Assembly (NCBI GenBank): GCA_964598125.1
Contig: CAZRAG010000003.1
Location: 1 to 52,885 of the forward strand
Source of the DNA: an uncultured Pseudomonadales bacterium
GTDB lineage: Bacteria > Patescibacteriota > Microgenomatia > UBA1400 > UBA1396
Direction of reading: 5' to 3'
Length of the DNA: 52,885 bases
The notes under the pieces are model-generated. The model was given only the letters and a program-made list of their open reading frames with translations, did no database searches and was not told the origin of the DNA. Positions 20,198-23,253 of the stretch are shown piece by piece (position 1 is the stretch's first letter; each line of letters begins with the position of its first letter). The translations under genes and the position numbers were made by a program.

Positions 20198-21649
20198 CTA
20201 GTACGCCTGCGCAAAAATCCAACGGCGCTTGGCAGGTTGACCAGAATAGACATCCAGACCTTCCGACTCTTCTTCATCCAACGCCACACAACGAGTGGTT
20301 GCTTTAGTCAGCTCTTTGATCTTTGCTTCTGTTTCCGGTGTTTCGTCCCAATACGCCCGAATAAATCCGCGTTTCGTAGCCATGATTTCTTTAAACTCGT
20401 CAAAGGTTTCAACATCATAGGTCATGTCACGCACCCGTGATTTTGCTTTGTCCAACATGTCTGACTGAATCCAGTCAAGCAGTTTTTCTATGCCCTCTTC
20501 CAAATGTTCAACCGAAATCTTTCGTTTTTCATGAATGTGTCGTACGGCAATTTGAATTTCGGCAGCATCAATCTCTCGAGGGCCAATTTCTAATCGGAGT
20601 GGAATGCCACGTACTTCAGCATCGTTAATGCGATATCCAAAGGAAAGTTTCTCACGGGCATCAACTTCAACCCGAATACCCTTTTTCTCTAAACGCGCCT
20701 GTAAAACTTTGGTGAACTCGAGTAATCGGTAATCATCAGTACGCACCGGAATAATGACCACCTGAACCGGAGCTACACGAGGTGGGAAAACCAGACCTTG
20801 ATCGTCTCCATGAGTCATGAGTAATCCGCCAATAATTCGGGTGGAAAGACCAAAACTTGTTTGCCAAGCAAACTCGTTTTCTCCAGCCTGATTTTGGAAA
20901 GAGATATCAAATGACCGACTAAAATTCTGTCCCAAATCGTGACTTGTCCCACTTTGCAGGGCCTTCCCATCTGGCATGAGCGCCTCAATGGTCACGGTCT
21001 GAAAAGCTCCAGCAAATTTTTCGGACTCGCTCTTGACTCCTTTTACTACCGGGATAGCCAACAAGTCCTGAGCAATTTGCTGATAGGCATCAATTGCATC
21101 AAGCACCATCTTTTGGGCTTCTTCATGTGAGGCGTGGGCTGTATGCGCTTCTTGCCATAAAAACTCCATAGATCGCAAGAAAAATTGGGTTCTCTTCTCC
21201 CAACGAACCACATTGTTCCATTGATTCATTTTGAGTGGCAGATCACGATAAGACTGGATCCACTTGCTGTACATTTCGTACATGATGGTCTCCGAAGTTG
21301 GCCGAACCACCAGCGGTTCTTCAAGCTTTTCGCCACCACCATGGGTGACAACCGCAAGTTCTGGAGCAAATCCTTTAACATGAGCCTTTTCTTTTTCTAA
21401 CAAACTCATAGGAATAAACAACGGAAAATACGAGTTCTGACATCCTAATGCCTTAAGTTTGGCATCAAGCTCCTCTTTAATTTTTTCCCAAATCGCATAC
21501 CCATAAGGCTTTAAAACCATAGATCCACGAACCGGTGAATAGTCAGCAATATTGGCTTTCAAAATGGCATCGGTGTACCAAGTGGACATGTCATCACTTT
21601 TTTTGCGCAGTTGTTTTTTGTCCGTTTGCTGTTGATTGTCTTTGGCCAT
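20198..21649 (-). CDS. proS: Proline--tRNA ligase (archaeal/eukaryote-like type)
   Basis: YSPVRG, RPTSET, QWNNVVRWE, EFLWQEAHTAH, QSGTSHDLGQNF, FGLSTR, anticodon-binding domain, C-terminal IFAQAY. Confidence 0.97.
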   Translation of the reverse strand: MAKDNQQQTDKKQLRKKSDDMSTWYTDAILKANIADYSPVRGSMVLKPYGYAIWEKIKEELDAKLKALGCQNSYFPLFIPMSLLEKEKAHVKGFAPELAVVTHGGGEKLEEPLVVRPTSETIMYEMYSKWIQSYRDLPLKMNQWNNVVRWEKRTQFFLRSMEFLWQEAHTAHASHEEAQKMVLDAIDAYQQIAQDLLAIPVVKGVKSESEKFAGAFQTVTIEALMPDGKALQSGTSHDLGQNFSRSFDISFQNQAGENEFAWQTSFGLSTRIIGGLLMTHGDDQGLVFPPRVAPVQVVIIPVRTDDYRLLEFTKVLQARLEKKGIRVEVDAREKLSFGYRINDAEVRGIPLRLEIGPREIDAAEIQIAVRHIHEKRKISVEHLEEGIEKLLDWIQSDMLDKAKSRVRDMTYDVETFDEFKEIMATKRGFIRAYWDETPETEAKIKELTKATTRCVALDEEESEGLDVYSGQPAKRRWIFAQAY

Positions 21650-21681: not shown

Positions 21682-21985
21682 AAAAAACCGCCCTTGTCTG
21701 AGTTTTATTCAGGCGCTTGATAGTTTGAGCTACCAAACAAAAAACCCAGGCAAGGACGGTCAATTACCGTGGTACCACCTCGCTTTCTGATAGCTTTTGC
21801 TATCAGCTTATCACCAATAGAAAGATTGAACTTTTCATTGGTTAAGCGGAAGATCACGGCCGCCTGCCGGATGTGTTAACGAAACGGAGATATTACTTTT
21901 TCCGCCTGGATCCACATCTGCTTTCAAAATTGAAACGATAGGTAGGAACTATCGCGCTCACCCCTTTTGAGGATCAGCAGCAGTA
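21682..21985 (-). ncRNA. T-box riboswitch (transcriptional) upstream of proS
   Basis: Antiterminator AGG-TGGTACC-ACGGT...ACCGT-CCT (21753-21780), stem III CTGATAGC/GCTATCAG, F-box-like GCCGTGATC, alternative 14-bp terminator plus T6, extended -10 TGcTACAAT at about 21991. Confidence 0.88.
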
Positions 21986-22302
21986 AAAAGATTGTAGCAT
22001 GATTATTTCAGCACATCTTGCAAGCGTGTTGGTACAGAGGTATTTGGTCTTTGCAATGAGGAGAATCATGAGAAACTTCTACCGATACCCAGGCAACTCC
22101 AGAAATATCGACTCGAATAATATCGGCTGATTCCGTTGACACCGATTTCGATTGAAAAAAGAGCTCTTACCCACTTGGTAGAGTTATTGGCATACCTTGC
22201 GACAGCCTCTCAACAAGCTCACTTCTCTGACTTTCCCATGTTTCTGGATTTTGGCCCTCTTCAACATACGGCAAAAACTGCTGACGGTAGTCAATAGATT
22301 CC

Positions 22303-23253
22303 TTAAACATGTGAGGCACTGAAGAATTCACGGAGTGAAAGTATTTCTACAAGCTCGTCATCTGGGTTTACCTCACCCAAATAAGAATCAGTCATAATGA
22401 TTCTTTTCATGTGTGCGGTACGAAGTTTTTCTAAAGCATTATTGGCAAACAAGCCGTGGGTGATCGCCACATACACCTGTACTTGGGGATCTCTTTCATG
22501 GAGTGCCTGCGAAGCGGCGATCAACGTCCCTCCAGTGTTGAGCAAATCATCAACAAGCACAACGTGCTTTGCTTCAAGGCCATCAAGATTGCTCGTATCA
22601 ATTTTGACCTGACCAGGACCAAGGCGTACTTTTGTGAGATACGTAACCGGAACATTTAAAATCTCCCCTATTTGATGCGCGCGGTGAGCGGCACCCTTAT
22701 CTGGGGCCAAAAGCACGGTCTGACTGGTATCAACCATCTGACGGATACCAGCGATTAGCAAGTCTTCCGCCGACAGTTGAGTAACGGGAATGCTCCAATA
22801 CTCTTGATCTCGAGGGCTGTGAAGATCAAGCAAAACGACTTCATCAACCTGCAAGGCTTCAACACTTTTCACAAAAACCTTGGCTGCTATGGCATCACCA
22901 CCGCGAGCATCGCGATCCTGTAAAGAGTACGGCATGTAGGGCAAAACAAGCTTGAGATGAACACACTGCCGCCGTGCAGCCTCGAGTAATAACAACACGT
23001 TCTGAACTTGCTCTGCCAGTGTTGGCATATTCGGAATGGCTGTTGAACCAAACCGCGCAAACACCTCAATAGTTTCAAATTGGGAAGTTGTTTGAATTTG
23101 CGCCCATTGCTCTCCATTGGGATAGTTGCCTGCTTGCCAAGCCACTTCAGTAATTTTTGGCGTAATCAACGCCTGATGCCAAGCATCAACTTGAAAAAGT
23201 AACCTGCCAATGGGAAGAATGTTAGCCTCACTCAACCCACTTTGCATCGTCAT
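22303..23253 (-). CDS. prs: Ribose-phosphate pyrophosphokinase (divergent)
   Basis: YPNGEQWAQI, LPYMPYSLQDR, LDLHS, LLAPDKGA, VLVDDLLNTGGTL, ITHGLF. Confidence 0.88.
   Translation of the reverse strand: MTMQSGLSEANILPIGRLLFQVDAWHQALITPKITEVAWQAGNYPNGEQWAQIQTTSQFETIEVFARFGSTAIPNMPTLAEQVQNVLLLLEAARRQCVHLKLVLPYMPYSLQDRDARGGDAIAAKVFVKSVEALQVDEVVLLDLHSPRDQEYWSIPVTQLSAEDLLIAGIRQMVDTSQTVLLAPDKGAAHRAHQIGEILNVPVTYLTKVRLGPGQVKIDTSNLDGLEAKHVVLVDDLLNTGGTLIAASQALHERDPQVQVYVAITHGLFANNALEKLRTAHMKRIIMTDSYLGEVNPDDELVEILSLREFFSASHV

Follow-up and report, generated by a model that had tools for sequence, protein, structure and literature searches.

A probable proline-specific T-box riboswitch with an ultrashort stem I upstream of proS in a CPR bacterium

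Here we describe a leader RNA that, judged from its sequence, is very probably a proline-specific T-box riboswitch with an ultrashort stem I, controlling proS by transcription attenuation; from the same sequence we infer tRNA binding, docking by stem II and termination itself. The leader was found in a 52,885-nt stretch of DNA (the window), which belongs to a 1.0-Mb assembly of 53 contigs that is 97% complete. This is a typical size for the phylum, in a sample of which (201 genomes) every listed genome measures 0.6 to 1.3 Mb. The regulated gene encodes an archaeal/eukaryote-type prolyl-tRNA synthetase (ProRS) with the Pfam domains tRNA-synt_2b, HGTP_anticodon and ProRS-C_1, and the leader (minus strand, 21984-21682) sits in the 650-nt gap that separates it from a PRPP-synthetase-like gene:

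20198..21649, minus strand: proS, 483 aa (TIGR00408 proS_fam_I, 575 bits)
21658-21655, minus strand: ribosome-binding site AGGA, outside the terminator hairpin
22303-23253, minus strand: PRPP-synthetase-like gene, the upstream neighbor of proS

Each of the other eight species in the family has an orthologue of this ProRS (71-84% identity). Its nearest named relatives are found in Candidatus Paceibacterota/Parcubacteria MAGs at ∼54% identity, and a wider contig search with the ProRS alignment returned only distant ProRS (≤54% identity; Paceibacterota, Bacteroidota and others) and no family members. The leader sequence itself was matched in sequencing runs from groundwater and subsurface DNA metagenomes only, with no RNA runs among them.

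At the Rfam gathering threshold, the window yields two tRNAs and no T-box. With E-value reporting, the T-box model RF00230 matches 21749-21911 on the minus strand (33.5 bits against a cut-off of 93; local E of 1.4e-5), the low score being due to the missing long stem I. The 3' half of the model aligns well, with stem III followed by AGCGAGGUGGUACCACGG...CCGUCCUU; the model's stem II is deleted altogether and its stem I for the most part. This match to the 3' domain, with the ProRS gene downstream, bears out the initial annotation of the locus as a proS T-box, and its statement that a canonical stem I is lacking holds as well, as the covariance-model check leaves stem I largely deleted. We found no AG bulge, distal-loop platform or internal specifier loop in the leader, where the comparative structure has a 6- to 7-bp hairpin only.

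The way in which cmscan aligns model positions 1-102 suggests a different placement, in which GGCGGAAAAAGUA (∼21906-21894) and UUCCGCUU (21851-21844) would form the base and specifier loop of a degenerate canonical stem I, AAAGUA would lie at the place of the specifier-loop S-turn, and the specifier would be found farther 3', for example at CCG (21859-21857). We regard this placement as extremely unlikely, given that the alignment has a low average posterior probability (0.68) with most of stem I deleted, that neither an AG bulge nor a distal loop accompanies it, that the five related leaders have no counterpart of the 5' partner GGCGGAAAAAGUA, their stem II tips being short and different, and that UUCCGC covaries as the 3' strand of the IIB helix. 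The pairing proposed by Rfam (GGCGGAA.../UUCCGC) was thus rejected as a mis-assignment that joins the nonconserved tip of stem II to the covarying 3' strand of the pseudoknot. The triplets offered earlier as alternative specifiers fare no better: CCG is the start of the F-box (CCGUNA), which is independent of the amino acid and present alike in Trp, Ser, Ile and Arg leaders, and CCA (21909-21907) lies in the stem II tip that the relatives lack.

The hairpin that we take to be the whole of stem I had been picked out from the sequence at 21954-21936, with the loop UUCCUAC, and lies exactly there:

21935..21955, minus strand: ultrashort stem I, a 6- to 7-bp helix, based on loop conservation and covariation; the match of covariance model R1 (see below) starts here

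Its strands, CGAUAG (21954-21949) and CUAUCG (21941-21936), enclose the loop (21948-21942), in which the proline codon CCU occupies 21946-21944 and is followed by a conserved purine, A21943. T-boxes are present upstream of proS in five of the eight other species of the family (G003, G005, G006, G007 and G008), with an open reading frame for a CsaA-like tRNA-binding protein separating leader and proS in G005 and G006. The two species of the same genus have no proS leader, which indicates that the proS switch is dispensable. In all six family leaders a 7-nt loop with the consensus N-Y-CCY-A-N, that is, a CCY specifier followed by the purine A, is found at an equivalent 5' position on stems of unrelated sequence (5' strand / loop / 3' strand):

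Own genome: CGAUAG / UUCCUAC / CUAUCG
G007: CUGAGU / UUCCUAC / ACUCAG
G006: CACGAA / UUCCUAG / UUCGUG
G008: CCAAAAG / CUCCCAA / CUUUUGG
G005: GGCAG / CUCCCAU / CUGCC
G003: UUGGA / GCCCCAC / UCCAA

T-boxes prefer specifier codons that end in C; the specifier of our leader ends in U (CCU), and we count this against our preferred reading. Inspection of the six family proS leaders by eye revealed no UGA...GA pair flanking stem I; UGA...GAGC flanks are present in many other short-stem-I leaders of the same order.

In place of a whole-leader MAFFT alignment, in which variable inserts caused stems I and II to be misaligned, we used a hand-cut alignment of the six cores (109-112 nt), from which variable linkers and helix tips were removed. 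Since this alignment was assembled by hand with the structure in mind, its pair counts lean towards the model: 93.9% of 180 cells hold standard pairs, compared to 75.7 ± 2.2% with shuffled partners and 36-44% with partners slid by 1-3 columns, and 17 of the 30 pairs show changes on both sides, which was matched in 0 of 500 shuffles. Compensatory changes affect six of the seven pairs of stem I. RNAalifold, run on the same core alignment, predicted the same helices unprompted, including the base of stem II.

Downstream of stem I, the leader carries the elements expected between a codon arm and an antiterminator, and the stem III and stem IIA/B elements read from the sequence by the initial annotation are present on the minus strand where it placed them:

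21870..21918, minus strand: stem II, with the base helix GAUGUG/CACAUC and conserved flanks, GGA on the 5' side and YUAAC on the 3' side
21846..21869, minus strand: stem IIA/B pseudoknot, based on the F-box and on covariation of its second helix
21860-21852, minus strand: GCCGUGAUC, which contains the F-box CCGUGA (21859-21854)
21813..21842, minus strand: inserted hairpin ACCAAU...AUUGGU in the linker before stem III, from the minimum free energy (MFE) fold; lineage specific
21787..21806, minus strand: stem III (CUGAUAGC-AAAA-GCUAUCAG), aligned to stem III of RF00230

The base helix of stem II is paired in 100% of cases in the six genomes and four of its six pairs show compensatory changes, the family variants being GAUGUG/CACAUC, GGUGAG/CUCAUC, GAGAGG/CCUCUC and others; its apical part is variable (AGGCGGA...UCCGUUU), and we recognized no AGUA/GAA S-turn in stem II. 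In the pseudoknot, CGG (21869-21867) pairs with CCG of the F-box in a first helix that is invariant or wobble paired in the family, and GCGG (21863-21860) pairs with CCGC (21849-21846) in a second helix with compensatory changes at a rate of 4/6. The string shared by the six proS leaders reads CGG-N3-NNNN-[C/U]CG[U/A]NA...NNNN and is followed by a purine-rich linker. This pairing reproduces the topology of the Mycobacterium tuberculosis ileS T-box, with its IIA hairpin and loop-linker pseudoknot, and CCGUGA matches the published F-box, which reads CCGUCA in Nocardia farcinica (PMC7583486). The inserted hairpin is absent in G008, G006, G005 and G003, and G007 has a different, larger insert; a hairpin at the place of stem III is found in five of the six family leaders and is absent in G003.

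The identity of the loop triplet as a specifier can be examined beyond proline. RF00230 matches with E-values up to 0.01 number 75 and come from 33 of the 41 genomes of the order, their downstream genes being named with NCBIfam. Most are short in stem I and reach 20-60 bits; matches above the cut-off occur in only 4 of the 41 genomes, so that standard Rfam annotation misses most T-boxes of the order. The genome studied here has three matches (glyS, proS and trpS, the last with 23.9 bits). Grouped by regulated gene, the terminal loops display the following codons:

trpS, 5 leaders: ...UGG-R at the 3' end of an 8- to 9-nt loop; codon UGG
serS: CUUCCAA and CUAGCAC; codons UCC and AGC
ileS, 6 of 7 leaders: UCAUCA, UUAUCA, CCAUCA, CUAUCCA, CUAUCAC and UUAUCC; codon AUC
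thrS, 3 leaders: NCUCACCAA; codon ACC
argH, a GNAT gene and argS, 10 leaders (two of the argS leaders from the covariance-model search): GUCGCG(A) or a close variant; codon CGC
aspS, one leader: UUGACAG; codon GAC
glyS, 3 leaders: CUUUGGCAA; codon GGC

A covariance model built from the six family cores (CM R1) gives the own leader 47.8 bits over 21955-21749. Its hits extend to 89 of 201 genomes in the order and to 15 of 201 in the phylum. Among the new leaders that it found linked to aminoacyl-tRNA synthetase (aaRS) genes or to csaA, which had no part in forming the hypothesis, 18 of 20 display the cognate codon:

Pro, five leaders from other families: GUCCCCA (two), CUCCUAA (two) and CUCCUGA; three stand before a bacterial-type ProRS and two before csaA
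Ser, eight leaders, bringing the total with UCC or AGC to 10
Arg, two leaders: GUCGCGA
Ile: CUAUCA and CUAUCU, bringing the total with AUC to 8
Val, one valS leader: UUAGUCA; codon GUC

The register of the codon is variable, UCC occupying loop positions 2-4, 3-5 or 4-6 among serS leaders and GUC positions 4-6, which indicates that what stays constant is a small terminal loop with a cognate codon, after which A or G usually follows, and not a strict anticodon-loop register. There are exceptions: two aspS leaders show AAC (Asn), and no clear codon is seen in an alaS leader (L182) and an ileS leader (L152). CM R1 at times takes a linker hairpin for stem I, as in L165, L169 and L175, where the specifier hairpins lie upstream and were found by eye; loops assigned by the model were therefore kept out of the statistics, which rely on a rule-based permutation test. 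Under a strict rule (stem of ≥5 bp, loop of 6-7 nt, codon at loop positions 3-5), which undercounts since neither the Trp and Thr loops nor any stem of 4 bp can satisfy it, 28 of 57 aaRS leaders show the cognate codon, compared to 9.6 ± 2.6 with shuffled labels and a maximum of 20 in 20,000 shuffles; the significance is overstated, as the leaders are related to each other, and nine amino-acid classes agree nonetheless. On this comparative evidence, the loop codon is seen to track the regulated gene in at least nine amino-acid classes within the same order. This, along with the conservation of the loop on covarying stems in six genomes, upholds the earlier suggestion that the 7-nt loop displays the proline specifier.

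The same data bear on whether the leader reads a codon at all. If it were a T-box remnant or a specifier-less switch, the 3' discriminator alone would sense any uncharged tRNA with A73, the hairpin would be an unrelated element, structural or protein binding, and CCU would be coincidental. Such a leader would be in keeping with its absence from the same-genus relatives and with a stem II that is reduced and has no clear S-turn. Yet CCY holds the same loop position in all six family leaders while every stem base changes, the five proline leaders from other families also present CCC or CCU, and the codon in the loop changes along with the regulated gene for the amino acids listed above; we therefore consider a switch without a specifier very unlikely.

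The proline-specific T-box that we favor would read the aminoacyl end of the tRNA in its 3' domain, which contains two mutually exclusive folds:

21750..21783, minus strand: T-box sequence and antiterminator (helix A1, 7-nt bulge, helix A2), from the RF00230 alignment with high posterior probability
21682..21760, minus strand: predicted intrinsic terminator, a long composite hairpin followed by U6, fold of −34.9 kcal/mol

The antiterminator consists of GAGG (21781-21778), the bulge UGGUACC (21777-21771), ACGGU/ACCGU (21770-21756) and CCUU (21755-21752). The RF00230 alignment, in which AGCGAGGUGGUACCACGG, with its UGGNACC-type bulge, falls on model positions 180-219 with high posterior probability, confirms the antiterminator and the UGGUACC bulge noted at the outset, and the T-box sequence GGUGGUACC is common to all six family proS leaders. 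All three tRNA-Pro genes of the genome (GGG, UGG and CGG; ARAGORN) carry A73, so the proposed match of UGGU to this discriminator applies to each of them; in the same genome, the bulge of trpS is UGGC, which fits G73 in tRNA-Trp, and that of glyS is UGGA, which fits U73 in tRNA-Gly. The antiterminator fold (−12.1 kcal/mol) and the terminator share ACCGUCCUUG, the 3' strand of the former being reused as the 5' arm of the latter, and the terminator is ∼23 kcal/mol more stable. Its 5' arm starts at 21760, and its 3' arm CAAGGGCGGU (21696-21687) leads into U6 (21687-21682). The initial annotation described a 14-bp terminator plus U6; the terminator and the U run stand, and the 14 bp prove to be the base of a 79-nt hairpin of ∼30 bp, in which 10 bp are followed by a mismatch and further helices.

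One may ask whether a T-box of this build controls translation or RNA stability instead of terminating transcription. In favor of this, every ultrashort-stem-I T-box published so far is translational (PMC7583486; bioRxiv 10.1101/2023.02.28.530422), and the hairpin of the terminator has an unusual length and a composite build. Against it, a GC-rich stem of 10 bp runs directly into U6, the terminator helix lies 24-38 nt upstream of AGGA and thus leaves the ribosome-binding site free, and a stem with a U5-7 run is found in all five related proS leaders. We judge a translational or stability output to be distinctly unlikely.

In the preferred reading, control by transcription attenuation, the nascent leader would first form the 6- to 7-bp hairpin, whose 7-nt loop, shaped like an anticodon loop, would present CCU and the following purine. 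The anticodon of tRNA-Pro(GGG) would pair with this loop, with G34 wobbling on U in our leader and pairing exactly with CCC in G003, G005 and G008, and stem II and the IIA/B pseudoknot would dock beside the codon-anticodon helix as they do in actinobacterial ileS T-boxes; lacking a distal double-T-loop platform, the leader would make no contact with the tRNA elbow. Uncharged tRNA would pair through its 3' ACCA with UGGU and stabilize the weak antiterminator (−12 kcal/mol), allowing readthrough into proS, whereas with charged tRNA or none the stronger terminator (−35 kcal/mol, then U6) would form and transcription would stop.

Comparison with known T-boxes puts this leader into perspective. The canonical class I (RF00230, with Bacillus subtilis tyrS as an example) shares with it the antiterminator/terminator switch, the 14-nt T-box sequence, stem III, a UGGN matched to the tRNA discriminator, the F-box pseudoknot and a specifier codon followed by a purine, but has a long stem I, with internal specifier loop, AG bulge and distal loop, that the proS leader lacks. 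The glyS leader of the same genome (contig C43) is of this canonical kind, with a long stem I, 97.2 bits, the specifier GGC and the bulge UGGA. Proline T-boxes also exist in Firmicutes, where the leaders of Thermosediminibacter litoriperuensis (L100) and Firmicutes bacterium UBA5509 (L097) carry GGUGGUACC ∼90 nt before the ProRS gene; we take their stem I to be of the usual long form.

The closest counterparts are the ultrashort-stem-I ileS T-boxes of Actinobacteria (Mycobacterium smegmatis and M. tuberculosis), described by Sherwood et al. (2015, PNAS) as reported in PMC7583486 and since solved as structures (PMC7583486 and PMC10651847). What defines their class is that the terminal loop carries the specifier, and every member regulates ileS (bioRxiv 10.1101/2023.02.28.530422). 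With them the proS leader shares the short helix, the terminal-loop specifier, the lack of a distal double-T-loop elbow platform, stem II, the IIA/B pseudoknot with F-box, stem III and the bulge that pairs with NCCA. The stem I architecture, which the initial annotation had called new, is thus not new in its layout, as this is the published ultrashort ileS design (bioRxiv 10.1101/2023.02.28.530422; PMC7583486). The two differ in that (i) the specifier is CCU (Pro) before proS in our leader and Ile in theirs; (ii) the predicted output here is an intrinsic terminator with a free ribosome-binding site, compared to Shine-Dalgarno sequestration there; (iii) the host belongs to the CPR/Patescibacteria and not to the Actinobacteria; (iv) the M. 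tuberculosis ileS T-box has a K-turn in its stem I (PMC10651847), and none is recognizable here by inspection; and (v) our leader has a stem II without a clear S-turn and an extra hairpin linking stems I and II. What appears to be new is therefore the amino acid, the lineage and the apparent terminator output, a combination that, on the sequence features described here, is apparently absent from the T-box literature consulted.

In that literature, intermediate and ultrashort stems I are found in translational T-boxes, mostly of Actinobacteria, and use of the TBDB class II model was confined to Actinobacteria and to those class I hits whose stem I is truncated. A full-text literature search for T-boxes in CPR, Patescibacteria, Parcubacteria or Saccharibacteria returned no match. 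Transcriptional T-boxes generally need a long stem I platform for fast cotranscriptional capture of the tRNA (PMC7583486), a requirement that we counted, on kinetic grounds, against reading an ultrashort T-box as terminator type.

The proS leader is apparently one instance of a broader CPR family, itself apparently unpublished. We lean slightly towards seeing in it a member of a lineage-wide set of CPR/Patescibacteria T-boxes that serves many amino acids, uses a hairpin with a 6- to 9-nt loop as its whole codon arm and has a terminating output. If so, elbow docking would be dispensable for a kinetically competent transcriptional T-box, and the minimal module of codon loop and anticodon loop could be close to an ancestral, or to the simplest, form of riboswitch. 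Such leaders would combine an ultrashort arm with a terminator, for at least eight amino acids besides proline, in bacteria whose genomes measure 1 Mb. CPR bacteria import most amino acids, and to our knowledge almost nothing is known of their regulation. The core of ∼110 nt may thus offer a simple natural system in which to ask how much of a T-box cotranscriptional tRNA sensing needs, and it also bears on how a 7-nt codon loop discriminates between tRNAs and on how CPR bacteria gauge tRNA charging.

Upstream of the T-box core, the leader adds the following elements:

21991..21999, minus strand: extended −10 element TGcTACAAT, read from the sequence; putative promoter
21960..21974, minus strand: 5' hairpin AUCCU-CAAAA-GGGGU upstream of stem I, from the MFE fold; not obviously conserved in relatives
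21923..21934, minus strand: linker hairpin UUCA-AUUU-UGAA between stems I and II, from the MFE fold

Transcription is predicted to start near 21984. A strict consensus promoter scan found no −35/−10 pair, and TGnTAnAnT-type hexamers lie at a comparable distance upstream of the leaders of G003, G005, G006 and G008. The promoter/terminator scan also flagged the stem I hairpin as terminator-like, a label that we rejected, since the run of T residues is weak and it is for its loop that the hairpin is conserved. The multibranch of short hairpins that had been noticed at the 5' end can be recognized in the 21974-21960 hairpin, stem I and the 21934-21923 linker hairpin, all ahead of stem II, and linker hairpins analogous to the last are found in other proline leaders (G008, G006 and L165). 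The whole leader folds at −112 kcal/mol, with z = −6.8 relative to shuffled sequence.

Matches to the Rfam T-box model RF00230 (E up to 0.01) were found in 33 of 41 genomes of the order but exceeded the gathering score in only 4, and standard annotation therefore misses most T-boxes of this lineage. The genome that carries the proS leader has a second T-box with a short stem I, ahead of trpS:

L003:1725-1440, minus strand, contig C10 of the window's own genome (G000): trpS T-box leader, Rfam score 23.9 bits

Its stem I is formed by GAGGGG-AGUAUGGG-CCCCUC, with UGG-G, its F-box reads CCGUUA and its bulge UGGC, and the terminator (CCGAGCGU...ACGCUCGG) runs into the U-rich tail GCUUUUUGGUUUU. Translation of trpS probably begins not at the annotated GTG but at an ATG lying about 90 nt further downstream.

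Across the order, short-stem-I leaders precede further genes, here listed by locus:

L018, L025, L026, L133, L139, L147: Arg (CGC) T-boxes upstream of argH (argininosuccinate lyase)
L030, L137: Arg (CGC) T-boxes upstream of a GNAT (N-acetyltransferase) gene
L038/L029 (G006), L039 (G005), L168, L177: Pro T-boxes with csaA as the first gene
L131 (G012), L143 (G016), L150 (G033): thrS leaders

The genomes with the Arg-specific leaders are reduced, and the position of these leaders ahead of argH and GNAT genes means that the T-box system also governs the few remaining genes of amino-acid metabolism. At the csaA-first loci, found in several relatives, the gene following the Pro T-box encodes a CsaA/Trbp111-like tRNA-binding protein of about 110 amino acids that matches NF007495 with 163 bits; proS comes after csaA in G005 and G006, and the L168 and L177 loci were examined as far as csaA. 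Since the Pro T-box lies directly ahead of csaA, tRNA-Pro charging would co-regulate a gene for a tRNA-binding protein.

In the three Thr leaders the terminal loop is 9 nt long and reads NCUCACCAA. The IIA/B pattern (CGG...F-box) was looked for in them and not found, for which reason they may be without a stem II domain, as are glyQS leaders; if the domain is truly missing, the Thr design would be smaller than the Pro design. Two aspS leaders, L132 (G008) and L176 (G176), show the Asn codon AAC instead of GAC in their terminal loops (ACCAACAC; GUAACG), and an aminotransferase leader (L023) from the same genome as L132 shows CCAACA. The AAC codons may reflect a non-discriminating AspRS under tRNA-Asn control.

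Closer to the window, both same-genus species have proS orthologues of 81-84% identity (L035 in G001, L034 in G002), neither with a T-box leader at proS; in G001, proS lies almost directly downstream of a PRPP-synthetase-like gene. Within one genus, the leader is either lost in these two species or kept solely in the window genome.

The proS leader itself contains a further U6 run:

21745-21739, minus strand: U6 run (GGGUUUUUUG) within the terminator's 5' arm, immediately past the antiterminator

As pure speculation, this run is a candidate pause site that would buy time for tRNA binding.
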